NCBI GenBank assembly: GCA_963812085.1
Contig: CAWETL010000003.1
Location: 849,706-913,705 of the forward strand
Reading direction: 5' to 3'
DNA from: an uncultured Gemmatimonadales bacterium
GTDB lineage: Bacteria; Gemmatimonadota; Gemmatimonadetes; Gemmatimonadales; GWC2-71-9
Length of the DNA: 64,000 nucleotides
The notes beneath the pieces are model-generated. The model was given only the letters and a program-made list of their open reading frames with translations, was not told where the DNA came from and searched no databases. Below are positions 1-14,760 of the stretch, piece after piece. Made by a program: the position numbers and the translations under genes. The stretch's first letter is position 1, and every line of letters starts with the position of its first letter.

Positions 1-544
1 AATCGAGGATCGAGTACATCACCGTATCCCGCATCCGGCCGCCCTGGGTGCGCTGGTACCTTCGAAAGACGCCTTCCTGCTGTGCCCCCAGGCGTTCGAT
101 TGCCCGGCGGGAGCGGGTGTTGAGCACGTCGGTCTTGAGCTCGACCCGATAGCACCCCCACACCTCGAAGGCGTGACGAAGCATCAGGTACTTGGCCTCG
201 GTGTTCACCGCGGTCCGCTGCCAGTCTGGCGCCACCCAGGTCCAGCCGATCTCGACGTGACGGTTCTCCGCGTCGATGTTGCCATACCGTGTCGAACCCA
301 CGACGCGTCCCGAGGCGACCTCCACGGTCGCGAAGGGAATGGACCGGCCCTCCGCCTGCTCGGCGAGGGTCCGCTCGAGCCACTCCCGCAGATCCGAAGG
401 CGTCTCGAGCCGATCGATGGTGGAGCGCCAGATGTCGGGGGCGAGCCCGACGGCCAGGAGCCCCTCCCAGTGCCGCTCGTCCAGCGGCTCGAGGCGGACG
501 ACGGCGCCAGTGAGCACCGGCGAGGTGAATTGCGCTGCATTCAT
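1..544 (-). CDS. GNAT-family N-acetyltransferase (RimJ/RimL-like); 3' end outside window
   Basis: Not in the ORF track because it runs off the window edge. Minus-strand ATG at 544..542 gives MNAAQFTSPVLTGAVVRLEPLDERHWEGLL...VGSTRYGNIDAENRHVEIGWTWVAPDWQRTAVNTEAKYLMLRHAFEVWGCYRVELKTDVLNTRSRRAIERLGAQQEGVFR, a typical GNAT core. Divergent from iadA. Confidence 0.7.
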   Translation of the reverse strand, partial: MNAAQFTSPVLTGAVVRLEPLDERHWEGLLAVGLAPDIWRSTIDRLETPSDLREWLERTLAEQAEGRSIPFATVEVASGRVVGSTRYGNIDAENRHVEIGWTWVAPDWQRTAVNTEAKYLMLRHAFEVWGCYRVELKTDVLNTRSRRAIERLGAQQEGVFRRYQRTQGGRMRDTVMYSILD

Positions 545-546
545 CC

Positions 547-576
547 TTCCAATATATGGCGTGTCGGCAGTATTAT
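547..576 (+). promoter_or_regulatory. Candidate sigma70-type promoter for the cyanophycin operon (TTCCAA-18 nt-TATTAT)
   Basis: Only AT-rich patch in the 70-nt divergent intergenic region between the GNAT gene and iadA. Hexamers at 547-552 and 571-576. Confidence 0.3.
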
Positions 577-614
577 CCCGGTCCCCACTCCCGCAGCCGG
601 AGCCTTCCCGCCGC

Positions 615-1784
615 ATGCTGACCCTGCTCAGGAACGCCGAGATCTACGCCCCGGAGCCCCGCGACGCACGCCACTTGCTGGTGGGCGGCGGCAAGGTACT
701 CTGGATGGGGCGCGACGCCCCGGCGCTCCCCTCCGCGCTCGGCGTGGTCGAACGGGACCTCGGTGGACGCCGCCTGATTCCCGGGCTCGTGGACGGGCAC
801 GTCCACCTGACCGGCGGCGGCGGAGAGTCGGGCCCCGAGAGCCGGGTGCCTCCCGTACCGCTGACCCGTTTTACCCGGGGCGGCGTGACCACGGTGGTGG
901 GCGTGCTGGGGACGGACGACCTGACGCGCTCGACCTCCTCGCTGGTGGCGGCCGCGCGCGGCCTCACCGCCGAAGGAATCAGCGCCTGGTGCCACACCGG
1001 GGGCTACCACCTTCCGCCGACGACGCTCACCGGGAGCGTGCGGGGCGACATCGTCCACGTGGACCGCATCATCGGCGTCGGCGAGGTGGCATTGAGCGAC
1101 CATCGCTCGAGCCAGCCGACGCTCGAGGAACTCCTCCGGCTCGCGAGCGAGGCCCACGTGGCGGGGCTCATGACCGGCAAGGCCGGCATCGTGCACCTGC
1201 ACCTGGGCGACGGACCGCGCGGCCTCCGCCTGGTCCGCGACGCCCTCGACGGAAGCGAAATCCCTCCCCGCGTGTTCAATCCCACCCATGTCAACCGGCG
1301 CCGCGCACTGTTCGACGAGGCCCTCGAGCTCGCCGGCCGCGGCGTCACCATCGACCTGACCGCCTTCCCGGTCGGCCCGGGCGAGGACGCCTGGGCCGCT
1401 GAGGACGCCCTGCTCCATTATCTCGGCGCCGGGCTCCCGCCGGAGCGCATCACGGTGAGCTCGGACGGCGGCGGATGCCTCCCGGTGTTCGACGGGGACG
1501 GGCGGGTGACCGACATGGACGTGGGAAGCCCGGGCGCGCTGGCGGCCGCACTCAAGTCGCTCCTCGACCGGGGACAGGCGCTGGAGCGCGTGCTGCCCGC
1601 CTTCACGTCCAATCCCGCCGACCTCCTCCGCCTCCCCGACAAGGGGCGGATCGAGGCCGGCGGCGACGCCGACCTCGTGGTCCTCAATCCCAACGGAGAC
1701 GTGACCGACGTGATGGCCATGGGACGCTGGCACGTGGTGGAAGGCCGGGCGGTGGTGCACGGCACGTTCGAGGCGGGCGCGTGA
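615..1784 (+). CDS. iadA: Isoaspartyl dipeptidase (beta-aspartyl dipeptidase, amidohydrolase superfamily)
   Basis: Internal ATG at 615 of ORF 276..1784: MLTLLRNAEIYAPEP...GLVDGHVHLTGGGGESGPESR. About 389 aa, the typical IadA length. Stop overlaps the next start (GTGA). Confidence 0.85.
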   Translation: MLTLLRNAEIYAPEPRDARHLLVGGGKVLWMGRDAPALPSALGVVERDLGGRRLIPGLVDGHVHLTGGGGESGPESRVPPVPLTRFTRGGVTTVVGVLGTDDLTRSTSSLVAAARGLTAEGISAWCHTGGYHLPPTTLTGSVRGDIVHVDRIIGVGEVALSDHRSSQPTLEELLRLASEAHVAGLMTGKAGIVHLHLGDGPRGLRLVRDALDGSEIPPRVFNPTHVNRRRALFDEALELAGRGVTIDLTAFPVGPGEDAWAAEDALLHYLGAGLPPERITVSSDGGGCLPVFDGDGRVTDMDVGSPGALAAALKSLLDRGQALERVLPAFTSNPADLLRLPDKGRIEAGGDADLVVLNPNGDVTDVMAMGRWHVVEGRAVVHGTFEAGA

Positions 1785-2623
1785 GCCCGGCCCGGTCGCC
1801 GGACGGCGCGCAGCGGGGCTGGATCGTTCCCGTGGGCGGCGCCGAGGACAAGATGCGCGACGCCCGGATCCTCCGGCGTTTCGTGGAACTCTGCGGCGGC
1901 AAGGACGCCCGGATCGCCATCATCCCGACGGCCTCGCAATTGGCCGACACCGGCGACCGCTACGAGGCGCTCTTCACCGAGCTCGGCGCGGGGCGCGCGC
2001 GGGCGCTGCCATTCGACAGCCGCGCCGACTGTGAGCGCGCCGACTGGCTCGAAAAGCTCGAGCGCGCGACCGGCGTGTTCCTGACGGGCGGCAACCAGCT
2101 CCGCCTCGCGACGACGCTCGGGGGCACCGAAGTGGCCCGGTCGCTCCGGACGCTCAACGCCGCCGGCGTGCACGTGGCCGGCACCTCCGCCGGAGCGGCG
2201 TTCCTGTCGGAGCACATGATCGCGAGCGGCGAGGACGGCGCGGTGCCCCGCTCCAACATCGTGACCCTCGCCCCCGGCCTCGGGCTCACCAACCGGGTCG
2301 TCATCGACCAGCATTTCCGCCAGCGCGACCGCCTCGGCCGCCTGCTGACGGCGCTGGCCTACAATCCGTTCGCGATCGGCGTGGGCCTCGACGAGGACAC
2401 CGCCGCCTTCATCGGGCCCGACGAGACCGTCGAGGTGGTCGGCAGCGGCGGCATCACGATCGTGGACTGCTCCGACGTGGAGTACTCCTCGATGGACCAG
2501 GTGGGCGACCACGAGCCGGTCTGTCTGCTCGGGCTGCGCCTGCACATCCTGACGGCCGGCGCCACCTACAATCTGCACACCCGCGTGGCCACGGCCCCGA
2601 GCGCCGCGACTACCCAGCCCTGA
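1781..2623 (+). CDS. cphB: Cyanophycinase (peptidase S51), no obvious signal peptide, so CphB-like
   Basis: GTG at 1781 is in frame with ORF 1475..2623 and overlaps the iadA TGA. Shows IVPVGGAEDK, IAIIPTASQ, FLTGGNQ and the GTSAGA serine motif. About 280 aa. Confidence 0.85.
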   Translation: MSPARSPDGAQRGWIVPVGGAEDKMRDARILRRFVELCGGKDARIAIIPTASQLADTGDRYEALFTELGAGRARALPFDSRADCERADWLEKLERATGVFLTGGNQLRLATTLGGTEVARSLRTLNAAGVHVAGTSAGAAFLSEHMIASGEDGAVPRSNIVTLAPGLGLTNRVVIDQHFRQRDRLGRLLTALAYNPFAIGVGLDEDTAAFIGPDETVEVVGSGGITIVDCSDVEYSSMDQVGDHEPVCLLGLRLHILTAGATYNLHTRVATAPSAATTQP

Positions 2624-2645
2624 CCCCGGCTCCCCCGGGAGGCGT

Positions 2646-5436
2646 ATGCGCATCATCGAAACCTCGGTCTACCTCGGGCCGAGCCTGTACGCCCATTTCC
2701 CCGTCATCCGGCTCGACATCGACCTTGGGCCCGTCGAGGCGTGGCCGACCGCTCGGCTCGGCCCGGCCTTCAACGACGCGCTGTTCGACGCCCTGCCCGG
2801 ACTGGCGGAGCACGGCTGCTCCTATGGCGACGCCGGCGGCTTCCGGCGCCGCGTCCTGGAAGACGAAGGGACCTGGCTGGGGCACGTGCTGGAGCACGTC
2901 GCGATCGAACTGCAGAACATCGCCGGCGCGCAGGTCACCTTCGGGAAGACGCGCTCCGCCGAGGCGCCCGGGCACCTACCACGTGGTCTACGAATACGAG
3001 CAGGAGGAGGTCGGGCTCGAGGCAGGGCGGCTCGCGCTGACACTGTTGCACTCGCTGCTGCCCGAGGAACTGCGCCCGCCGAGGAGCGTGCCGTCGGGGT
3101 TCGACTTCGCGGAGGAGCGGGACGCCTTCATCCGGTTTGCCCAGCGCCGCGCGCTCGGGCCGAGCACCGCCTCGCTGGTGCACGCCGCGGAGCACCGCGG
3201 CATCCCGTGGATGCGGCTCAACGACGCCAGCCTGATTCAATTCGGCTGGGGCCGCTACCAGCAGCGGGTGCAGGCCACGATCACGAGCCACACCTCGCAC
3301 ATCGCGGTCGAGATCGCCTCCGACAAGGAGGAGACCAACAAGATCCTCGCCCGGCTCGGCCTCCCGGTGCCGAAGCAGCGCCTGGTCCAGCGGGAAGACG
3401 AGGCCATCGACGCCGCGCGGCGGATCGGGCATCCCGTCGTGGTCAAGCCGTACAACGCGAATCACGGGCGCGGCGTCGCCATCAACCTGCGCGACGACGA
3501 GACGGTGGCGGTGGCCTTCCGCCAGGCGCAGGCCATCAGCCGGAGCGTGATCGTCGAGACCTTCATCCACGGCCACGACCACCGGATGCTGGTGATCGAC
3601 GGGGAACTCGTGGCGGTAGCCAAGCGGGTCCCGGGCCACGTGGTGGGCGACGGCACGCACACGATCGAGGAACTCGTCGGGATCGTGAACAGCGACCCCC
3701 GGCGCGGGATCGGGCACGAGAAGGTGCTCACCCGGATCGAGTTCGACTCGCAGGCCGACCGGCTGCTGGCGCAGCTCAACTACACCCGGCAGACGGTCCC
3801 CGCCGCGGGCGAGGCGATCTACCTGCGCTCCACCGGCAACCTCTCCACCGGCGGTACCTCGGTGGACGTGACCGACGCGGTCCACCCCGACAACCGCGAG
3901 ATGGCGATCCGGGCGGTCGAGGCGATCGGCCTCGACGTCGGCGGGGTGGACTTCCTGACGCCGGACATCACGCACTCCTACCGCGAGAGCGGCGGGGGCG
4001 CCATCTGCGAGGTCAACGCCGCGCCGGGCTTCCGGATGCACATGGCGCCGAGCGAGGGCAAGGCGCGCGACGTGGCCGGGCCGGTGCTCGACATGCTCTT
4101 CCCGCCGGGCACGCCCTCCCGCATTCCCATCGCGGCCATCACCGGCACCAACGGCAAGACCACCACCTCGCGGATGCTGGCGCACATCCACAAGCTGGCC
4201 GGGCGGACCGTCGGGCTCACCACAACGGACGGCGTGTACATCGACGGCAACCGCACCGTCGAGGGCGACATGACCGGGCCGATCGCCGCCCGGATGGTGC
4301 TGGGCGACCCGCAGGTGGACGTCGCCGTGCTGGAGACGGCGCGCGGCGGCCTGCTCCGCGCCGGCATGGGCTACCGCCACTGCGACGTGGCCGCCTGCCT
4401 CAACGTGAAGTCGGACCACCTCGGCCTCCGCGGCGTCGACACGCTCGAGGAACTGGCCAAGGTCAAGCGGATTCCCGTGGAGGTCGCGCGCGACACCGCG
4501 GTCCTCAACGCCGACGACCCGCTCTGCCTGGCGATGGCCGACTACACCGAGGCCAAGGTCATCTGCTACGTGACGCTCAACCCCGAGCACCCGCTGGTGC
4601 GCGAGCACATCCGCGCCGGCGGGAGGGCGCTGGCGCTCGAGGCCGGCGTCAACGGACAGATGATCACCATCTACGACCACGGCGCGCACATTCCGCTGCT
4701 GTGGACCCACCTCATCCCGGCCACGCTCGAGGGCCGCGCGACGCACAACGTGCAGAACGCGATGTTCGCCGCGGCGATGGCGTTCAGCATGGGCGTCAAG
4801 CTGGAGGACATCCGGCACGGCCTCCGCACCTTCGACACCAGTTTCTTCCAGGCACCGGGCCGGATGAACGTCTTCGACGAGCACCCCTTCAAGGTGATCC
4901 TCGACTACGGGCACAATCCCGACGCCGTCGAGGTCATGTGCCAGCTCACCGACCGGCTGGACGTGAAGGGCCGGAAGCTGGTGGTCCTGGCCGGACCTGG
5001 CGACCGCCGCGACGAGGACATCAGGGAAATCGCCCGCCGGGCGGTGGGGCGGTTCGACCATTACTTCTGCCGCCGGGACGATTCGCTCCGGGGGCGGACC
5101 GACGAGGAAGTGCCGCGGATCCTCAGGGAGACGCTGCTCGTCGCCGGCGTGCCGGAAAAGAAGATCACCGTGATCGCCGACGAGCAGCGCGCGGTGGACG
5201 CGGCGCTCCGGATGGCGAGGCCGGGCGACCTGCTGCTGGTCTTCGGCGACGCCATCTCGCGCACCTGGAAGCAGATCATCCACTTCCACCCGGACGTCGC
5301 GGGCCGTGGCGCCGCGCCGGCGTCGGCGCCTGCCGTGGTGGAGCAGCCTCCCGTCCCGGCCATGGCCATGCCCGAGGACGACCAGCTCATTCGCGACGAG
5401 CGCGGGGTGCGCCTCCCCCGGGAAGCCGACGACTGA
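2646..5436 (+). CDS. cphA: Cyanophycin synthetase CphA (N, ATP-grasp and Mur-ligase domains) with an apparent +1 frameshift near 2964-2973
   Basis: The first ~108 codons read in the frame of 2646 (MRIIETSVYLGPSLYAHFPVIRLDIDL...GKTRSAEAPG). The rest reads in the frame of 2725 (TYHVVYEYEQEE..., ATP-grasp region, P-loop ITGTNGKTTT, DYGHNP). The two frames join if one nt is removed from gcgcccgggc. Confidence 0.85.
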
Positions 5437-7163
5437 TGGTCCTGCCGGAGACGGTGCGGGATTCCCGGCGCCTCACCGGCCCGAACCTGGTGTCCGACCG
5501 CCCGGCCGCGGTGCTCGAGGTGGACCTCCCGCCCGGCGCGGCGGACGCCGCCGTTGGACTCTGGCGCGAGGAGGCCCGGCGCGCGCTCGAGGCGCTCGGC
5601 TGGGGCGGCGAGTCGCTCATCGTCCGGCAGTTCCCGGGCGGCGCGAGCCTGGCCCTCACCGCGCCGATCGACGCCCTCTACGCGGCCACTGAAGTGAATG
5701 AGTGGGCGTGGACCGCCGCGACCCGGCGGCTCCACGGCGAGCCGGTGGAGGCCGGACCGGAGCTCGCGCGCCTTGCCCTCGCGATCGCGGCCGAACGCCG
5801 GCCCGCTCTCCTGGCCCTCCAGCGCGCGGCCGCAGCGCGGGGCGTCCGGTTCCTCTGGGATGACCAGTTCGTCTCGGTCGGCTCCGGAACAGGCGCCAGC
5901 ACCTGGCCGGTGGACGCGCTGCCCGCCCCCGACGCCGTGGACTGGTCACGGGTGCATGACATTCCCGTGGCGCTGGTGACGGGCAGCAACGGCAAGACGA
6001 CGGTCACCCGGCTCACGGCGGCGATCATCACGGCCAGCGGGCGCGTGGCCGGGCACACCTCCACCGACGGGATCAAGGTCGGCTCCGAGCTCCTCGAGGC
6101 GGGAGACTTCAGCGGGCCCGGCGGGGCGCGGCTCCTGCTGCGGGACCCGCGGGTCGAAATGGCCGTGCTCGAGACGGCCCGCGGCGGACTCCTCCGGCGG
6201 GGCCTGGCCGTGGAGCGCGTGGAGGCGGCAGTCGTCACCAACATCGCCGAGGATCATCTCGGCGAGTCGGGCGTCTATTCGCTGGCACATCTCGCCGCCG
6301 CCAAGCTGGTCGTGGCCCGCGCGTTGGACGCCACCCACCCCATTGTCCTCAACGCCGACGACCCCGCACTCGTGGCCGCGGCCGACGCCCTCACCTGCCC
6401 AGTCGCCTGGTTCTCGCTCGATGCCGACAGCCCCGTGCTCACGGCCGCGCGTGCGCGCGGGCAGCGCACCGCCTGCCTCGACGGGCGTCAGCTGGTGCTC
6501 GGGGCGGGAGTATCAGTGCGATCGGTCACCACGGTGGACCGGGTGCCGATCACGGTCGGTGGTGCGGCGCGCCACAACGTGGCGAACGCCCTCGCCGCTG
6601 CGCTCCTCGCCTCGGCGCTCGGCCTGCCCGACGACGCCATCGCGAACGGCCTCGCGGCGCTGACCAATACCCCCGCCGGCAATGTCGGGCGCCTCAACGC
6701 CTTCGAATTCGGCGGCGTCCGCGCCTTCGTGGACTTCGCGCACAACCCGCACGGCGTCACGGCGCTGATGGACATGGCGCGCGCGCTGCCGGCCACTCGA
6801 CGGCTGGTCGTGATCGGCCAGGCCGGCGACCGCGACGACCACGCGATCCGCGAGCTGGCCCGCACCGCCTGGTCGGGGCGGCCCGACATGGTGATCGTCA
6901 AGGAGATGCCCGCCTACCTTCGCGGCCGCCCCGAGGGCGAGGTCACCGGCATGCTTCGGGCCGAGCTTCGGCGGCTTGGAGCGCGGGAAGATCAGCTCGG
7001 CCTGGCCGTCGGCGAACTCGGCGCGGTCCGCCGGGCCCTGACCTGGGCCCGCGACGGAGACCTGCTGCTCCTCACCGTCCACGCCGACCGCGACAGCGTC
7101 CTTCGTTTTCTGCAGCGGCTCGGCGCCGAGGGATGGACCCCCGGCGCCCCGCTTCCTACATGA
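5436..7163 (+). CDS. CphA-like protein with N-domain plus Mur-ligase domain and no ATP-grasp domain (CphA' type)
   Basis: ATG at 5436 overlaps the cphA TGA (TGATG). It is the tail of the artefactual 1505-aa ORF 2646..7163. N-terminus ETVRDSRRLTGPNLVSDRPAAVLEVDL parallels the CphA N-terminus. Then VTGSNGKTTV, NIAEDHLG and DFAHNPHG Mur-ligase motifs. About 575 aa. Confidence 0.8.
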   Translation: MVLPETVRDSRRLTGPNLVSDRPAAVLEVDLPPGAADAAVGLWREEARRALEALGWGGESLIVRQFPGGASLALTAPIDALYAATEVNEWAWTAATRRLHGEPVEAGPELARLALAIAAERRPALLALQRAAAARGVRFLWDDQFVSVGSGTGASTWPVDALPAPDAVDWSRVHDIPVALVTGSNGKTTVTRLTAAIITASGRVAGHTSTDGIKVGSELLEAGDFSGPGGARLLLRDPRVEMAVLETARGGLLRRGLAVERVEAAVVTNIAEDHLGESGVYSLAHLAAAKLVVARALDATHPIVLNADDPALVAAADALTCPVAWFSLDADSPVLTAARARGQRTACLDGRQLVLGAGVSVRSVTTVDRVPITVGGAARHNVANALAAALLASALGLPDDAIANGLAALTNTPAGNVGRLNAFEFGGVRAFVDFAHNPHGVTALMDMARALPATRRLVVIGQAGDRDDHAIRELARTAWSGRPDMVIVKEMPAYLRGRPEGEVTGMLRAELRRLGAREDQLGLAVGELGAVRRALTWARDGDLLLLTVHADRDSVLRFLQRLGAEGWTPGAPLPT

Positions 7164-8620
7164 GTATCGAACTCGACTCCGGTTTCGCCACCGCCCGCGA
7201 ACTGGCCCGGGCCATCCGGGAGCGGCGGATGAGCGCCGTCGAGGCGCACGACCTGCACCGCTCCCGCATCGACCGGCTCAACCCGCCGCTCAACGCCGTC
7301 GTCATCCCCAACGAACGCGCGCGCGACCAGGCCGCCGCCGCGGACGCCGCCCTCGCACGCGGCGAGCCGTGCGGCCCGCTCCACGGCGTTCCCATCACCA
7401 TCAAGGACATCTTCGACGTGGAGGGCCTCCGCAACACCGCCGGCTATCCTCCCGCGAAGGACAACATTTCCACCAGCGATGCGACCGTCACCGCGCGCAT
7501 GAAGGCCGCGGGGGCCATCATCCTCGGCAAGACGAACGTGCCCCTGCTCTGCTACGACTGGCAGTGCGACAGTCCCATCTTCGGCCGCACCAACAACCCG
7601 TGGGACCTCTCCCGCACACCGGGCGGAAGCACGGGGGGTGGCGCCGCCGCGGTGGCGGCGGGCCTTTCGCCGCTCGAGATCGGCAGCGACGCGGCAGGCT
7701 CGATCCGGATTCCGAGCCACTTCTGCGGCGTGTTCGGTCTCAAGCCCACCGAGGAGCGCGTCTCCGGCGCCGGACACGGCGAGCTCCCCGGCCGGCCGCC
7801 GGGCGGGCTGCGCCACCTCGTGAGTTTCGGCCCGCTGGCGCGCTCCGTGCCTGACTTGCGCCTCGCGCTCTCGCTGCTGGAAGGCCCCGACGGCCGCCAC
7901 GTCGAGGTGCCCCCGGTCCCGCCGATCGAACGCACGCCCGAGATTCCCCGGCCCGAAACGATCCGCATCGCCTGGATGGACGCCCTCCCCCACTGCCCGA
8001 CCTCCGCGGAGACCGCCGCGACCGTGCGAGCAGCGGCGACTGCGCTGGAGGCGGCGGGCTGCCGGGTCGAGCGTGTGAGTCCGGAGAACTTCGATGTCGA
8101 GGAGGCGCTGGCGACGTGGGGCCAGATCAACGGCTTCGAAATGGGCGCGATGACGCCGGCCTGGATCCGGCTGCTGATCCGGCACACCACGTTCATGGGG
8201 TTGGGGCGAACCCGGTGGACGCGGGGGCTTCGGGGAGGGTTCGGAATGAACGCGGGCCGCTACTTCGAGGCCCTCGCCACGCGGGACCGCCTGGTCGCTG
8301 CGCTCGACGCCTTCCTGGCCCGGTTCGATGCGTGGCTGCTGCCGGTCGCGGCCATCCCGGCGTTTCCCCACATGCGATCCGGGAAGTCGCTCGAGGTGGA
8401 TGGGGTCTCGGTGCCGTACACCACGGCGGTGGGCTCCTACGCCGCCCCCTTCAACCTGACTGGCAGTCCGGCCGTGGTGCTCCCTGCCGGCCGATCGGCG
8501 GATGGACTCCCGATCGGGGTGCAGCTGGTCGGCGCCCGCTGGGCGGACGATCGCCTGCTCGCCGTCGCCGAGCGGGTTTCCGAGATCCTCGGGCCCTACC
8601 GGGCGCCGCCGGGCGCCTAG
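7160..8620 (+). CDS. Amidase-signature family amidase (GatA-like)
   Basis: ATG at 7160 overlaps the preceding TGA (ATGA). Shows GVPITIKD, PGGSTGGGAAAVAAG and GSDAAGSIRIPS motifs. About 486 aa. Confidence 0.85.
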   Translation: MSIELDSGFATARELARAIRERRMSAVEAHDLHRSRIDRLNPPLNAVVIPNERARDQAAAADAALARGEPCGPLHGVPITIKDIFDVEGLRNTAGYPPAKDNISTSDATVTARMKAAGAIILGKTNVPLLCYDWQCDSPIFGRTNNPWDLSRTPGGSTGGGAAAVAAGLSPLEIGSDAAGSIRIPSHFCGVFGLKPTEERVSGAGHGELPGRPPGGLRHLVSFGPLARSVPDLRLALSLLEGPDGRHVEVPPVPPIERTPEIPRPETIRIAWMDALPHCPTSAETAATVRAAATALEAAGCRVERVSPENFDVEEALATWGQINGFEMGAMTPAWIRLLIRHTTFMGLGRTRWTRGLRGGFGMNAGRYFEALATRDRLVAALDAFLARFDAWLLPVAAIPAFPHMRSGKSLEVDGVSVPYTTAVGSYAAPFNLTGSPAVVLPAGRSADGLPIGVQLVGARWADDRLLAVAERVSEILGPYRAPPGA

Positions 8621-8673
8621 TCCTTGGTGATGGTCGGCGAACCGAACTTCGGCGGTCGCGGTAGAATCCCTTC

Positions 8674-8757
8674 TGTCATTGCGAGGCCACGAAGTGGCCG
8701 AAGCAATCTGGCCCGAGATTGCTTCGTCGGCCCCACCGGGGCCTCCTCGCAATGACA
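8674..8757. repeat. Palindromic intergenic repeat, family A (TGTCATTGCGAGGC...GCCTCCTCGCAATGACA), copy 1
   Basis: Outer inverted repeat tgtcattgcgagg / cctcgcaatgaca, inner repeat gaagcaatc / gattgcttc. Lies between convergent genes. Related copies at 40984-41067 and 62963-63105. Confidence 0.8.
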
Positions 8758-8791
8758 GAACTGCCGCCGCAGGCTGTCGCACCGAGGCACG

Positions 8792-11122
<2,331 letters not shown>

Positions 11123-11233
11123 CGGGCGGCGAATCGGCCGTAAAGGTACAGGGGCGCGGGAGGGTGTCCAAGCCGGGCGGGGATCCGTAAATTGTGGGCG
11201 TTGCAGTCCCTCGCACTCGACCCCGGAGCCCTG

Positions 11234-11599
11234 ATGCAATTCAAGGCTTGTGCTGCACTCATCCTCGCCAGCCTGGCGGTCGCCGGGTGCGGCAATGATG
11301 CCACCCCCGCGAACACCGACAAGACGGCGCCCTCGGTGGCCATTGCGTCGCCGGCCGCCGGCACCGTCAGCGGGACCGTCACGCTCGCCGTCACCGCCAC
11401 CGACGCCAGCGGGATCGCGACAGTACAGTGGAAGATCAACGGGGCGCTGCTGACTGCGGTCGATTCCACGGCGCCCTTCGAGTACGCCTGGAATACCGCG
11501 CTGAACGGGCCCGGGACCTATACCTGGACGGCGGTGGCCACGGACAAGGCGGGCGTCGGCGCCGAGTCGGCGCCGGTCACGTACATGGTCGGCCTGTAG
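11234..11599 (+). CDS. Lipoprotein with bacterial Ig-like domain
   Basis: Internal ATG 11234: MQFKACAALILASLAVAGCGND (lipobox). Followed by VAIASPAAGTVSGTVTLAVTATDASGIATVQWKINGALL, typical of Ig-like repeats. Confidence 0.6.
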   Translation: MQFKACAALILASLAVAGCGNDATPANTDKTAPSVAIASPAAGTVSGTVTLAVTATDASGIATVQWKINGALLTAVDSTAPFEYAWNTALNGPGTYTWTAVATDKAGVGAESAPVTYMVGL

Positions 11600-11628
11600 C
11601 CCAGCCTCCCGCCGCCTGGCATGAAGTG

Positions 11629-11659
11629 AGCCCCCGCCCGGAATCCCGGCGCGGGGGCT
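11629..11659 (+). terminator. GC-rich hairpin downstream of the lipoprotein gene
   Basis: agcccccgcccgg-aatc-ccggcgcgggggct, an imperfect stem followed by gctt. No strong T-tract. Confidence 0.35.
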
Positions 11660-11771
11660 GCTTGCACTCCAGGCCAGCCAGTCGGGCCCCTTCTAGCGGA
11701 CCCGCGTACCGGGCTGTCTATTGGTCGGCTTCGGCCCTATCAGCAGGCAAGTCGCGAACGGGGAGGTCTCG

Positions 11772-12950
11772 ATGCGTATGGACTGGCGGTTCCTCGCGGT
11801 GGTGGGCACCATATTGACATCAGCGATGCCCACCGAGACGGGTGCGCAAATTCCCGGGATCAAGAAGCCGAAGGTACCCTCGGTCCCCTCCGTACCTACC
11901 GTACCCACGGCCCCCGCGCAGACCGCGCAACCCGCGGCCGCGGAACCGGCCCCGGCCGCCGCGGGCCAACCGGCGGCCACTCCCGCGGCCGCCCCCGCGA
12001 AGAATGAGGCCCCCGGTTCGGGCGTCTGGGTCAACTATGATTTTCAGCCGGGAGAGATTCCGCTCTACGTGGATGACTTCTCCCGCGACCGGGTCGGAAA
12101 CTTCCCGAAACGGCTGGAGTTCGAGTCGGGCAACATGGAGGTCGTCGAGTGGAATGGCGTGCGATTCCTTCGCGCGACCACCCGAGCCAGTTTCGCCATT
12201 CCTCTCCCCGACGTCCTGACCGACCGGTTCACCATGGAGTTCGACGCCACCGGCTCCATCGCCAATATCTTCGCCACCATCACGTTCTCTCCGACTGCCA
12301 CCAGCTACGCGACCTACCGGTACTTCAACGATCGCATGCAAGGGGGCATCGATGGTACCGGGCCGAACGCCCTCGCCTTGACGGGTCCGACGGCGTTCGA
12401 GACGCCGTTCCGATTCCGCATTATGGCCGACGGCAAGTACGTCAAGGTCTACATCAACGAGACACGGGTCGCTAATGTCCCCAATGCCGATCTGGGGCGC
12501 TCAAACAAGATCAGGGTCGAATTTGCCGGGTCGGAGGAAAAGCCGGTGTTCATCGGCAACCTGAGCGTGCTGGCGGGCGGGCGTGAACTGTATGACGCCC
12601 TCGAGGAGAACGGTCGGGTGGCGACGCAGGGGATCTACTTTGCCTCGGGTTCCGACCAGATCAGGCCGGAGTCGACTCCAACGCTTGTCGAGATCGCGGC
12701 GATGCTGAAGGACCACCCCGACCTCGACATCCTCATCGAGGGGCATACCGACAACGTGGGGAACGCGGCCGCCAACCTCGCGCTCTCGGACCGCCGCGCG
12801 GCGGCCGTACGAACAGTCCTGATCGACACCTACAAGATCGACGGCAACCGCCTCACCACGAAGGGATTTGGCGATACCGTGCCGGCGAAGCCGAACACGA
12901 CGCCGGAGGGCCGCCAGGCGAACCGGCGAGTGGAGTTGGTCAAGCAGTAG
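11772..12950 (+). CDS. OmpA/MotB C-terminal-domain protein with Pro/Ala-rich linker
   Basis: GGGAGG RBS at 11761-11766, then ATG 11772. Signal-like MRMDWRFLAVVGTILTSAMPTETGAQ. C-terminus shows YFASGSDQIRPES...LIEGHTDNVGNAAANLALSDRRAAAV...ANRRVELV. Confidence 0.8.
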   Translation: MRMDWRFLAVVGTILTSAMPTETGAQIPGIKKPKVPSVPSVPTVPTAPAQTAQPAAAEPAPAAAGQPAATPAAAPAKNEAPGSGVWVNYDFQPGEIPLYVDDFSRDRVGNFPKRLEFESGNMEVVEWNGVRFLRATTRASFAIPLPDVLTDRFTMEFDATGSIANIFATITFSPTATSYATYRYFNDRMQGGIDGTGPNALALTGPTAFETPFRFRIMADGKYVKVYINETRVANVPNADLGRSNKIRVEFAGSEEKPVFIGNLSVLAGGRELYDALEENGRVATQGIYFASGSDQIRPESTPTLVEIAAMLKDHPDLDILIEGHTDNVGNAAANLALSDRRAAAVRTVLIDTYKIDGNRLTTKGFGDTVPAKPNTTPEGRQANRRVELVKQ

Positions 12951-13008
12951 AGGATCGGCCGGCCAGCGCCGACTTGCCATCGTGGTTCCCTCCGCGGTAC
13001 AATTCGGA

Positions 13009-13344
13009 ATGCCTCGCCTCAAGCGGTCCGGCGTGATTCGGGTTGTTGCCCTCTTCCTGTTGCTCACGGGCGGGAGTCTGTCGACTCTCGAATTCGTGCT
13101 GCACAGTGGGGCGGGCCACGCCGAATCGAGTTACCACCTGGGCACGACCGGCTCGCGCAACACTCCGCACCACTGCCTCGGCACCGCCATGTCCGGGGCC
13201 GGAGTCACCCCGGTCGTGGATGCCCGGACGCTCCTCTCCTGCCCCGATGGCCTCGAAACCCCGGTCCGGTCCGAGGCTGCCCTGCTGGCATTCGCCCCAG
13301 CCGTCCTCCCTACCACGCGAGCTCCTCCGACGATTCCCGTTTGA
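13009..13344 (+). CDS. Hypothetical small membrane-anchored His-rich protein upstream of the efflux operon
   Basis: Internal ATG 13009: MPRLKRSGVIRVVALFLLLTGG, then HSGAGHAESSYHLG...TPHHC. No recognisable family; coding status uncertain. Confidence 0.3.
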   Translation: MPRLKRSGVIRVVALFLLLTGGSLSTLEFVLHSGAGHAESSYHLGTTGSRNTPHHCLGTAMSGAGVTPVVDARTLLSCPDGLETPVRSEAALLAFAPAVLPTTRAPPTIPV

Positions 13345-13398
13345 CCTGGTGACCGGCTGCCCTTCCGGGCGTCGGCTATTCCAATTCAAAGGGATCGT

Positions 13399-14760
13399 AT
13401 GCGACACCTTCTCATGGTGTGCGCGCTGGCATTGACAGCCGGCACCGCACATGCGCAGCAGGCCGACAAGCAGCCAGAGACGACCGCTGCCGACACGGCG
13501 GGACTGCGAATGCCCCCGGACTGTGCCCGGGACTCCCAGCCGCAGGACGTCGCCACCGCCGACTCGCTCTGTCTCAGCCGGCCGGAGGCGGTCGCTGCGG
13601 CGCTGCAGCGCAATCCGCAGCTCAAGGCCGTCGAGGAGCAGGTGGCGCAGGCCCGGGCCCGCAAGGTCCAGGGCACGGCGTTCCCTGACCCGCAGTTCGC
13701 GGCCGAGTGGGGCAACTCGACCCGACTGTTCGGCGGGGAGGCCGGGACCAAGACGGTGGCGGCCACGCTGACGATCCCCTTCTTCGACAAGTTCCGCCTC
13801 TGGCACGACATCGGGCGGGCGGACGTCCAGGCCAATCAGGCAAACCTCGAGCTCGTTCGTCAGCTCCTCGCGTCACAGACCTCGGAGACCTACGACTCGC
13901 TGCTGATGTCGATTCGGCATCGCCGGATCCTCGAGGATGCCAAGTCGATGGCCGACGAGTTCCTGGCCAAAACCGAGTCCCGGTTCCGGGCGGGGACCGT
14001 CCCGCGACTCGATGTCGTCCAGGCCCAGGTGGACGAGGCGAGCGCGCAGAACGACCTCATTGCGAGCGAATCCGGGGTGGCGAACGCCCGTGCCGCCCTC
14101 AATCGCCTCCTCGACCGGCCCCTCGGCGCCCCGATCTCGGCCTCCGATTCCCTGGCCGTCCCTCCCGACCTGCCGCCCCTCGACACGCTGCTCGGCGCCG
14201 CGGTGGGCGCGCGCCCCGACGTCACGGGCCTCAACCGCCAGCTGGAGGGCGCACGGGCCAACACCGCCCTGGTGCACGAGTTCTGGTTCCCCGACATCGC
14301 GATCGGCGTCGGCCACGACTATGCCGCCCCCGGCCCCGGCAATCTCTTCACCGCGGTCTACTTTCCGATTCCAATTTTCTACTGGAACCACGCCAAGGGC
14401 GAGATTGCCCAGTCGCGTCACGCCGAAGCCGAGCTCGAGGCCTCGCGGCAGGACCTGCTCGCCCAGGTCAACCAGGACGTCCGGGTGGCGTATGCGGCGG
14501 CCTCGACCTCGCTGCGGCAGGTGCAGTTCCAGCGCGATGTCCTGGTGCCGTCCGCGCGCGAGGCCTACCGAATCGCCATCGCCAGCTATGCGCTGGGGGG
14601 ATCCTCATCGCTCGAGGTGCTCGGCGCACGGCGCGCCCTCACCGACGCCGAAAGCCAATACACCGACGCACTCGCCGCTGCCGACATGTCGCGAGCCGAG
14701 CTGGAACGCGCCGTGGCCGTTCCCCTTTCGTCCTTCCAGGCCGGAGGTCCCGCCCGATGA
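13399..14760 (+). CDS. czcC: Outer-membrane efflux protein (TolC/CzcC family)
   Basis: Signal peptide MRHLLMVCALALTAGTAHAQQ. Two-repeat OEP pattern. Stop overlaps the next ATG (ATGA). Confidence 0.8.
   Translation: MRHLLMVCALALTAGTAHAQQADKQPETTAADTAGLRMPPDCARDSQPQDVATADSLCLSRPEAVAAALQRNPQLKAVEEQVAQARARKVQGTAFPDPQFAAEWGNSTRLFGGEAGTKTVAATLTIPFFDKFRLWHDIGRADVQANQANLELVRQLLASQTSETYDSLLMSIRHRRILEDAKSMADEFLAKTESRFRAGTVPRLDVVQAQVDEASAQNDLIASESGVANARAALNRLLDRPLGAPISASDSLAVPPDLPPLDTLLGAAVGARPDVTGLNRQLEGARANTALVHEFWFPDIAIGVGHDYAAPGPGNLFTAVYFPIPIFYWNHAKGEIAQSRHAEAELEASRQDLLAQVNQDVRVAYAAASTSLRQVQFQRDVLVPSAREAYRIAIASYALGGSSSLEVLGARRALTDAESQYTDALAAADMSRAELERAVAVPLSSFQAGGPAR

Follow-up and report, generated by a model that had tools for sequence, protein, structure and literature searches.

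A CphA paralog lacking the ATP-grasp domain accompanies cphA1 in a bacterial cyanophycin operon

The window, a 64,000-nucleotide stretch of DNA from an uncultured Gemmatimonadales bacterium, carries a run of cyanophycin genes on its plus strand. iadA, coding for isoaspartyl dipeptidase (618 to 1784; TIGR01975, 385 bits against a cut-off of 331), precedes cphB, coding for cyanophycinase (1859 to 2623; TIGR02069, 242 bits against a cut-off of 126.6). Both start codons are approximate, and the iadA family match begins at amino acid (aa) 115 of an open reading frame that starts at 276. cphA1 follows (2646 to 5436) and encodes a complete cyanophycin synthetase (N-G-M) of the A. baylyi/T. morbirosei type, the CphA1 proteins of these two organisms being its closest relatives (561 to 566 bits); its reading frame is split by a 1-nt insertion near position 2975. 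The gene studied here, termed N'-M (5436 to 7163, plus strand), yields a 575-aa translation without internal stop. At a TGATG junction, its ATG (5436 to 5438) shares one base with the TGA (5434 to 5436) that ends cphA1, and the sequence GGGAAG lies 10 nt 5' of the start. Homologs keep this protein start, MVLP[ED]T..DSRRLTGPN.

An earlier note on this DNA had described the product as a CphA paralog made of an N-like domain and an intact Mur-ligase (M) domain, without the ATP-grasp (G) domain. Pfam, NCBIfam, a PDB sequence match, AlphaFold and Foldseek all support this description. The only Pfam matches in the 575 aa were Mur_ligase_M (aa 181 to 391, 75 bits) and Mur_ligase_C (aa 418 to 547, 44 bits). 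The NCBIfam model of cyanophycin synthetase, TIGR02068, aligned through its positions 477 to 850 with aa 174 to 550 at 350 bits, below its cut-off of 850, and its positions 1 to 476 found no match in the product. AlphaFold predicted the full protein with high confidence (pLDDT 94.7, pTM 0.93), and in a structure search the model matched whole CphA1 chains with a TMq of 0.80, versus 0.50 to 0.56 for MurE. This TMq, together with the pTM, indicates that the N:M arrangement is kept; domain mapping and the structure search both uphold an N plus M architecture.

Residues 175 to 550 correspond to a CphA-type M domain in which all ATP, Mg and catalytic residues are intact. In the PDB it matches residues 487 to 816 of CphA1 (7lg5; E = 4.9e-67), and the identity of 33 to 35% to any CphA1 M domain marks the protein as an ancient paralog. 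The M core, or Mur-ligase central domain (aa ∼175 to 410; 5958 to 6665; delimited from Pfam Mur_ligase_M and 7lg5), contains the P-loop GSNGKTT (aa 183 to 189; 5982 to 6002), whose K187 and T188 are the counterparts of K499 and T500 in TeCphA1. The M lid, or Mur-ligase C-terminal domain (aa ∼418 to 564; 6687 to 7127; Pfam Mur_ligase_C), holds DFAHNPHG (aa 433 to 440; 6732 to 6755) and AGDRDD. GSNGKTT and DFAHNPHG, the two motifs quoted in the earlier note, are therefore both present. In an alignment of 135 target and CphA1 sequences, K187, T189, E246, D273, H274, N306, N381, N384, R419, D433, H436, N437, R466, R496 and R498 were conserved in at least 97%, and T188 was conserved in at least 90% of the homologs. 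In TeCphA1, the ATP and Mg ligands are K499, T500, T522 and E558, and the K499A substitution kills activity (PMC9427784).

The N' domain (aa 1 to 120; 5436 to 5795) matched nothing in Pfam or NCBIfam, PF18921 included. The parallel with the CphA N domain that had been drawn between RRLTGPNLVSDRPAAVLEVDL (aa 11 to 31 of the N'-M product) and SVYLGPSLYAHFPVIRLDIDL (aa 7 to 27 of the cphA1 product), with 7 of 21 residues identical, is not significant at the sequence level, where profile-profile comparison by hhalign gave P = 0.014 and a probability of 3%, but it stands at the level of the fold. The topology predicted by AlphaFold is beta-beta-alpha-beta-beta-alpha-alpha. When the N-terminal 175 aa were modeled alone (pLDDT 96), all 10 Foldseek matches in the PDB at E ≤ 1e-3 were CphA1 or CphA2 chains (E from 2e-6 to 2.5e-4, TMq from 0.52 to 0.61, alignments of 183 to 212 columns). 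As modeled, N' is thus a CphA N-domain fold despite being missed by the sequence models. HxxEH was found in the first 176 aa of 0/67 members of the N'-M family, whereas C-x17-24-HxxEH was present in 65/65 partner CphA1s. The metallopeptidase-like primer site Cx19HxxEH, a motif defined in PMC9262961, occurs in ∼83% of CphA1s and is not obligatory.

The G domain is reduced to a remnant. No ATP-grasp family of Pfam matched the N'-M product, whereas the product of the neighboring cphA1 matched RimK, ATP-grasp_5, CPSase_L_D2 and others. What is left, at aa 123 to 158 (5802 to 5909), is a vestige of the beginning of the G core, predicted by AlphaFold as a helix (123 to 135) and three strands (139 to 141, 145 to 148 and 155 to 158), and hhalign placed it colinear with CphA1 residues ∼170 to 209, within the first ∼45 residues of the G core. 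N does precede M with G missing, as had been proposed, but the fusion is not direct, since residues ∼123 to 158 intervene. Nor do residues 1 to 190 hide a cryptic ATP-grasp fold: the ∼40-residue vestige lacks all ATP-binding elements. About 260 residues are missing, comprising the G lid, the G omega and most of the G core, and because the G domain is gone the protein cannot extend the Asp backbone.

As a sequence group, the N'-M family is widespread, neither rare nor new, and was catalogued years ago. A homolog search with the protein returned >6800 matches, with thousands of full-length homologs of 544 to 592 aa that share the same two Pfam domains. Grouped at 50% identity, the N' domain alone makes up 635 clusters; in the best 150 N' matches listed, N' was always N-terminal, non-fragments had mostly 556 to 620 aa and none approached the ∼930 aa of CphA1. 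The gene order [iadA]-cphB-cphA1-N'-M was found in about 70/80 genomes from at least six phyla, and cphA1 lay immediately upstream on the same strand in about 70/80 loci, mostly with a gap of -8 to +40 nt. These loci belong to Gemmatimonadota, Acidobacteriota, Planctomycetota, Gamma- and Alphaproteobacteria, Rhodothermales and Marinimicrobia. N'-M co-evolves with its partner CphA1 (mirror-tree r = 0.84; Mantel 0/1000) and evolves faster, the mean identity in the same genomes being 43% for the N'-M family versus 66% for the partner CphA1s.

Second cphA' genes adjoining cphA, mentioned in the earlier note, are indeed described in PMC3646047 and PMC10687191. Group VII in the scheme of Fuser & Steinbuchel (2007), which Vollmers et al. 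(2013; PMC3646047) follow, comprises "CphA-like/cyanophycin ligase-like proteins"; their short genes directly adjoin a group VI cphA in Colwellia psychrerythraea (YP_268602 beside YP_268601), Francisella tularensis (YP_170102 beside YP_170103) and Octadecabacter arcticus. [quoted passage not shown] The window gene likewise lies immediately 3' of a cphA1 that is nearest to those of A. baylyi and T. morbirosei, and an Octadecabacter metagenome-assembled genome has a cphB-cphA1-homolog locus (L058) whose homolog is 44% identical to the window protein. We infer from synteny and taxonomy, rather than from alignment to the reference sequences, that the N'-M family matches group VII. The literature searched contained no biochemical or genetic data on any N'-M member.

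Relative to CphA1 (PDB 7LG5, 7LGJ, 7LGQ, 7WAC, 7LGM and 7LGN), the N'-M protein has in common the N fold, the MurE-like M core and lid, identical ATP, Mg and catalytic residues, the same placement of N and M and the same operon; it differs in lacking the G residues and the primer-generating site, and in the diverged M domain. CphA2 keeps the G domain, has a reduced M domain and is cyanobacterial. Like CphA2 (PDB 8FXH and 8FXI), whose N domain N' matches structurally (E = 3e-5, TMq 0.52 to 0.56), the N'-M protein is a reduced CphA paralog that retains an N domain and one of the two ligase activities, but the reduction is reciprocal, M being kept and G lost, and the family occurs in Gemmatimonadota, Acidobacteriota, Planctomycetota, Proteobacteria and others. 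CphA2 polymerizes beta-Asp-Arg dipeptides (PMC10273328), the backbone-forming reaction that in CphA1 is attributed to the G domain (PMC9427784). With MurE and MurF (e.g., PDB 1E8C, 4C12 and 2WTZ) the N'-M protein shares the central and C-terminal folds, the P-loop, the Mg ligands and the DH, HNP and GDRD motifs, and its AGDRDD is nearer to the GGDRD of MurE than to the PGDRRD of CphA1. In contrast to these enzymes, it carries a CphA N-like domain instead of the UDP-MurNAc-binding N-terminal domain; the NCBIfam models of MurE and MurF align no earlier than residue ∼175. Its similarity to CphA M domains (E = 5e-67) greatly exceeds that to MurE (E = 1e-11 to 1e-17), and its gene sits in a cyanophycin operon and not in the dcw cluster.

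The M domain departs from CphA1 around the putative amino acid pocket. KEMPAYLRGR (aa 489 to 498; 6900 to 6929) is the positional equivalent of CphA1 [KR][ER]DDxxRGR and putatively, by comparison with the DNPR motif of E. coli MurE, of MurE DDNPR; both Asp residues invariant in CphA1 are missing and one residue is inserted. We compared the residues universal in 65 partner and 4 solved CphA1s with those of the N'-M family (SuCphA1 numbering). D802 is replaced by a variable residue plus a 1-aa insertion, R778 by D/S/T, Q727 by D, E607 by R/K, H508 by A, Y637 by W and P774 by A. E607 of SuCphA1 contacts bound cyanophycin (PMC9262961). This residue comparison favors a catalytic ligase with an altered amino acid pocket, and since the pocket is changed from that of all CphA1s, the added amino acid may not be arginine; the pocket reading depends on placing the motif by analogy with MurE and not on a ligand-bound structure.

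The earlier note had suggested either a side-chain ligase, perhaps for another amino acid, or a noncatalytic partner of CphA, and both are reasonable candidates. We propose that N'-M is a free-standing M-domain relative with intact catalytic competence, which would use ATP to form amide bonds on cyanophycin in trans, a reading to which we give a probability of roughly 0.55. From the observed architecture, conservation, synteny and co-evolution, we infer catalysis, cyanophycin as the substrate and an altered specificity. The protein would have arisen from a full-length CphA by internal loss of the ∼260 ATP-grasp residues, and its gene would share a transcript, and probably be coupled in translation, with a complete cphA1 in an iadA-cphB-cphA1-X operon. 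The N' fold is predicted to pack on the M core as the N domain does in CphA1, where this arrangement creates the polymer-binding cleft of the M site and a cyanophycin analog is flanked by N domain and M core (PMC9427784). CphA1 would make the poly-Asp backbone; the N'-M protein would bind cyanophycin or the nascent chain in trans to CphA1, activate a carboxylate with ATP and join an amino acid, without backbone extension. Compared with the Arg-on-terminal-Asp reaction of CphA1, a different amino acid may be added or a different acceptor used. That N'-M is a dedicated trans side-chain ligase with a specificity unlike that of the CphA1 M domain, adding a non-arginine amino acid or using another acceptor carboxylate, is a tentative suggestion that we regard as rather doubtful. 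Counting against a catalytic ligase, the partner CphA1 has an intact M domain and HxxEH site, so that no missing activity obviously needs to be supplied, and the faster evolution of N'-M could reflect relaxed constraint. In Tetrasphaera MAGs, a short cphA copy that might belong to the N'-M family is reported to be expressed less than the long copy (PMC10687191), a further point against the ligase reading.

The completeness of the partner CphA1 would suit a noncatalytic structural or regulatory subunit. Its N' and M folds would serve only to bind cyanophycin or to hetero-oligomerize with CphA1, and might in this way govern, for instance, how granules form, how long the chains grow or how active the enzyme is. 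The overlapping or close start and stop codons would fit stoichiometric co-production, the strong co-evolution points the same way, and PMC9427784 describes the CphA1 N domain as an oligomerization interface and polymer anchor. However, the P-loop Lys, the Mg-ligand Glu, DH, HNP and RGR are near-invariant in a family otherwise ∼46% identical, which is hard to explain without catalysis, as pseudo-enzymes usually lose catalytic residues; we consider such a subunit unlikely. N'-M could instead be an active Mur-type ligase with a nonpolymer substrate. This might be a short peptide or small molecule from the cyanophycin pathway, for instance in remaking or modifying beta-Asp-Arg dipeptides, or a carboxylate unrelated to it. 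The changes at CphA1-universal M residues, such as the cyanophycin-contacting E607, the missing polymer-cleaving HxxEH site and the presence of the dipeptide-handling cphB and iadA in the operon would agree with this, but the protein retains a CphA-specific N fold, placed against M as in CphA, where the two form the polymer cleft (PMC9427784), and the linkage is strictly to cphA1, not to cphB or iadA alone, which makes it improbable. Finally, although high-GC DNA yields long spurious open reading frames, frame 3 runs without a stop between 2646 and 7163 and the neighboring cphA1 is frameshifted, a decaying 5'-truncated cphA duplicate, a pseudogene remnant or an ORF-calling artifact is refuted by the thousands of full-length homologs, the 635 N' clusters, the conserved start codon, the very confident AlphaFold model, the catalytic conservation and the M identity expected of an ancient paralog.

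Bacteria store nitrogen in cyanophycin, a polymer of biotechnological interest whose enzymology is regarded as settled with CphA1, CphA2, cyanophycinase and dipeptidases. A second, putative CphA-derived ligase accompanies cphA1 in hundreds of lineages, which would mean either that many noncyanobacterial polymers differ from textbook cyanophycin or that the synthesis has an unrecognized step or control. If a distinct specificity were true, iadA-cphB-cphA1-X clusters would make a chemically distinct, undescribed cyanophycin-like polymer with two enzymes, in Gemmatimonadota, Acidobacteriota, Planctomycetota, Xanthomonadales, Rhodobacteraceae and others. As N'-M mirrors CphA2, the former M-only and the latter reliant on G, it provides a naturally occurring single-activity system in which side-chain addition can be studied or engineered, and the availability of cultured hosts and of a simple in vitro assay makes its function directly testable.

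Downstream, an amidase-signature gene (7133 to 8620, plus strand; PF01425, 339 bits) overlaps the 3' end of N'-M by 31 nt. Among the loci compared, it occupies this position only in L001 and L002, and it is a lineage-specific gene outside the conserved module.

The first 8.6 kb of the window form a plus-strand cyanophycin cluster with a G+C content of about 72%. It comprises iadA, coding for an isoaspartyl dipeptidase (TIGR01975, 385 bits), cphB, coding for a cyanophycinase (TIGR02069, 242 bits), cphA1, coding for a full-length cyanophycin synthetase (2646 to 5436; PRK14016/TIGR02068, about 1000 bits), the N'-M gene (5436 to 7163; Pfam Mur_ligase_M and Mur_ligase_C), and an amidase-signature gene (7133 to 8620; PF01425, 339 bits). 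The N'-M open reading frame (575 codons) described in the earlier note was confirmed, and translation of the ORFs recovered every sequence string quoted there at its expected place. The ATG of the N'-M gene overlaps the TGA of cphA1 (TGATG), with GGGAAG 10 nt upstream of the ATG. A scan of positions 1 to 9000 for promoters and terminators returned no promoter and one terminator-like site, not exceeding the numbers in shuffled sequence. The last 31 nt of the N'-M gene are shared with the amidase-signature gene; this layout recurs only in the closest relatives (loci L001 and L002), and the amidase gene is a lineage-specific addition to the operon. The window CphA1 is nearest to the Acinetobacter and Tatumella enzymes.

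We then analyzed the domains of the N'-M protein. Pfam recognized Mur_ligase_M (aa 181 to 391), Mur_ligase_C (aa 418 to 547), and no others; the adjacent cphA1 product additionally matches eight ATP-grasp families and the CphA N-domain family. TIGR02068 (NCBIfam) covers only aa 174 to 550 (model positions 477 to 850), with 350 bits against a cut-off of 850, and the nearest solved structures are CphA1 M domains (7LG5, E = 4.9e-67), with MurE and MurF at E values of 1e-11 to 1e-17. Residues 1 to 173 had no match in Pfam or NCBIfam, the hhalign comparison of a 69-sequence N' profile with a 65-sequence CphA1 profile was colinear and insignificant (P = 0.014, probability 3%), and PDB sequences searched with the N' profile (hmmsearch) yielded chance matches only (MarR and RPAC2; E = 0.35 to 1.7). 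The homology of the N terminus to CphA was decided by structure comparison, not by these sequence searches. An AlphaFold2 model of the full protein, built from 87 homologs (pLDDT 94.7, pTM 0.93), aligned with whole CphA1 chains at a TMq of 0.80 over ∼885 columns, the G (ATP-grasp) domain appearing as a single large gap, and with MurE at a TMq of 0.50 to 0.56. The N-terminal 175 residues, modeled separately (pLDDT 96), had ten PDB matches at E ≤ 1e-3, which were without exception chains of CphA1 or CphA2 (E = 2e-6 to 2.5e-4, TMq 0.52 to 0.61, 183 to 212 columns). Since this model matches CphA1 and CphA2 only at this threshold, residues 1 to 120 are assigned as a CphA-type N domain.

With the CphA1 domain ranges of PMC9427784, residues 123 to 158 (one helix and three short strands) were colinear with CphA1 residues ∼170 to 209, at the start of the G core (hhalign and AlphaFold secondary structure), and about 260 G-domain residues were missing, and with them the G lid, G omega, and those parts of the G core that bind ATP. 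The best reading of the N'-M protein is that of a CphA from which an internal deletion removed the ATP-grasp domain. A cryptic ATP-grasp domain is rejected, as the G core is represented only by the vestigial segment 123 to 158 and no ATP-grasp family matches in Pfam. The earlier note had described a CphA paralog in which the N domain is fused directly to the Mur-ligase domain; the paralogy, the N-like and M domains, and the lack of an ATP-grasp domain hold by Pfam and structure, but the fusion is not direct, the vestigial segment lying in between. The protein would work like the M half of CphA1, yet it is not a CphA1, because the G domain is absent and its score does not reach the equivalog threshold. 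CphA2, which polymerizes β-Asp-Arg dipeptides (PMC10273328), is its reciprocal. Neither is it a peptidoglycan Mur ligase, because the UDP-binding domain of MurC to MurF is missing and the genomic context is wrong.

A search of 5.8 billion proteins with the N'-M protein gave more than 6800 matches. The best 120 of these were all 544 to 592 aa long with the same two Pfam domains, and carried no names other than "Mur ligase family protein" or "cyanophycin synthetase." In a separate search, the N' domain matched 635 clusters formed at 50% identity, 406 of them with E ≤ 1e-10; in the 150 top matches listed, it was N-terminal throughout, non-fragment proteins had mostly 556 to 620 aa, and none was near the ∼930 aa of CphA1. 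Strongly conserved N' motifs within the family are DSRRLTGPN, GW, R.FPGGAS, and AP.D.LYAATE.NEWAW. The M domain of the N'-M protein is 33 to 35% identical to each sampled CphA1 group, whereas these groups share 41 to 60% identity among themselves, which marks the gene, judging by sequence divergence, as an ancient paralog and not a copy of the neighboring cphA1. A recent duplication or a pseudogene is rejected on the same low M-domain identity and on the size and conservation of the family. The N'-M family is real, old, and widespread, and the gene is neither an artifact nor categorically new. In Vollmers et al. (2013; PMC3646047), group VII of the classification of Füser and Steinbüchel (2007) consists of "cyanophycin ligase-like proteins," whose genes adjoin a cphA of group VI in Colwellia, Francisella, and Octadecabacter arcticus. 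In our sample, an Octadecabacter metagenome-assembled genome (MAG; locus L058) has the order cphB-cphA1-N'-M homolog, and by synteny and taxonomy the family has probably been seen before as this sequence group. Long and short cphA genes in series are also described in Tetrasphaera MAGs from wastewater (PMC10687191). In the literature on CphA-like proteins we found no paper assigning an activity to the family, a characterization in a subscription journal being possible, and the 2023 survey of cyanophycin gene clusters from the Schmeing laboratory does not mention the gene. It belongs to a large and apparently uncharacterized family, probably catalogued before, of CphA paralogs that lack the G domain and accompany cphA1.

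We examined this association in 80 loci from species-representative genomes, covering Gemmatimonadota, Acidobacteriota/Thermoanaerobaculia, Planctomycetota, Gammaproteobacteria (including cultured Dyella and Luteimonas), Alphaproteobacteria (including cultured Gemmobacter, Albidovulum, and Sulfitobacter), Rhodothermales, and Marinimicrobia. Homologs of cultured hosts include WP_158752976.1 (Dyella sp. S184) and WP_386705269.1 (Luteimonas notoginsengisoli). The order [iadA]-cphB-cphA1-N'-M homolog on one strand was found in about 70 of the 80, mostly with −8 to +40 nt from the cphA1 stop to the start of the homolog; in Thermoanaerobaculia, the homolog lies near cphA1 on the opposite strand. The homologs and their partner CphA1s are correlated in pairwise identity (r = 0.84; Mantel test, 0/1000), and the homologs evolve faster (mean identity, 43% versus 66% for the partners). 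A conserved 3' gene hinting at the substrate was sought in the 80 loci, and none was shared beyond single lineages. A third full-length cphA, divergent and 35 to 50% identical to the window CphA1 domains, is present in three Gemmatimonadales loci, between cphA1 and the N'-M gene on the opposite strand (L007, 4172 to 6787, minus strand; L017, 1542 to 4088, minus strand; L025, 4212 to 6788, minus strand). Two loci of Thermoanaerobaculaceae have, close to the N'-M gene, a cphA whose match to the G domain is confined to parts of it (L004, 11175 to 13304, minus strand; L010, 9350 to 11017, minus strand, where G-domain query residues ∼72 to 250 have no match); these could be assembly indels or further G-reduced variants.

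In the M domain of TeCphA1, K499, T500, T522, and E558 bind ATP/Mg, and the K499A variant is inactive (PMC9427784). The ATP/Mg binders and other Mur-ligase signature residues (K187, T189, E246, D273, H274, N306, N381, N384, R419, D433, H436, N437, R466, R496, and R498) are at least 97% conserved over 135 target and CphA1 sequences. Such conservation in a family otherwise about 46% identical argues that the N'-M protein would be an active ATP-dependent ligase. The acceptor polymer of the CphA1 M site is flanked by the N domain and the M core (PMC9427784), and the CphA1-like N:M arrangement kept in our model argues for a cyanophycin-type polymer as the putative acceptor. For their part, the partner CphA1s are complete enzymes with intact M-domain residues, and the primer-generating site C-x17-24-HxxEH (motif as defined in PMC9262961) is present in 65/65 of them and in 0/67 N'-M proteins.

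The pocket was compared between the family, the 65 partner CphA1s, and four solved CphA1s (Synechocystis, Trichodesmium, Tatumella, and Acinetobacter). In the family, nine universal CphA1 residues are replaced (SuCphA1 numbering): H508 by A, T538 by S, E607 by R/K, Y637 by W, Q727 by D, P774 by A, R778 by D/S/T, F793 by P, and D802 by variable residues. E695, R697, Q703, and others were dropped as family-specific changes, since they are a trait of the partner clade and cyanobacterial CphA1s resemble the N'-M protein there. E607 is among the M-domain residues for which contacts with bound cyanophycin are reported (PMC9262961). The invariant CphA1 motif [KR][ER]-D-D-x-x-R-G-R has D802 as its second Asp; in the family this motif reads K-E-[MLI]-x-x-[YHF]-x-R-G-R, one residue longer. 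We take this stretch to be the positional equivalent of the MurE DDNPR (E. coli MurE sequence …VVTDDNPRTEEP…). The DNPR of MurE is its DAP-binding motif, the Asp and Asn of DDNPR reading the side chain of the substrate. If this equivalence holds, the family would be without the acidic residues expected to recognize the guanidinium of arginine. We therefore rate a catalytic ligase acting on cyanophycin as the likely role of the N'-M protein; use of a donor other than Arg, or of a different acceptor carboxylate, is possible but rather unlikely.

The window cphA1 has one extra base near 2975 compared with its closest relatives, L001 and L002 (GGGCACCTAC versus GGCCA-GTAC), and is therefore split between frame 3 (first 108 codons) and frame 1 (the other 820). 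Sequencing or assembly may have introduced this indel, or it may mark a genuine and recent loss of gene function; if the frameshift is real, the organism would have an N'-M protein without a functioning synthetase. At L006, L014, L018, L041, and L072, the iadA or N'-M genes fall into two tblastn pieces, which suggests frameshifts by indel errors in those assemblies and makes a biological origin of the window frameshift less probable.

Beyond the cluster, a long ORF (8792 to 11239, minus strand) carries an ArsC-family region (aa 62 to 167) in frame with an ABC-F-type double ABC ATPase (two ABC_tran, ABC_tran_Xtn, and the C-terminal domain), and in this high-GC DNA a single ORF may have been called across two neighboring genes. 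The genes at 11192 to 14760 (plus strand) have no relation to the cyanophycin cluster; they encode a small Big_7 Ig-domain protein, an OmpA-family protein, and a TolC-like outer-membrane efflux protein.
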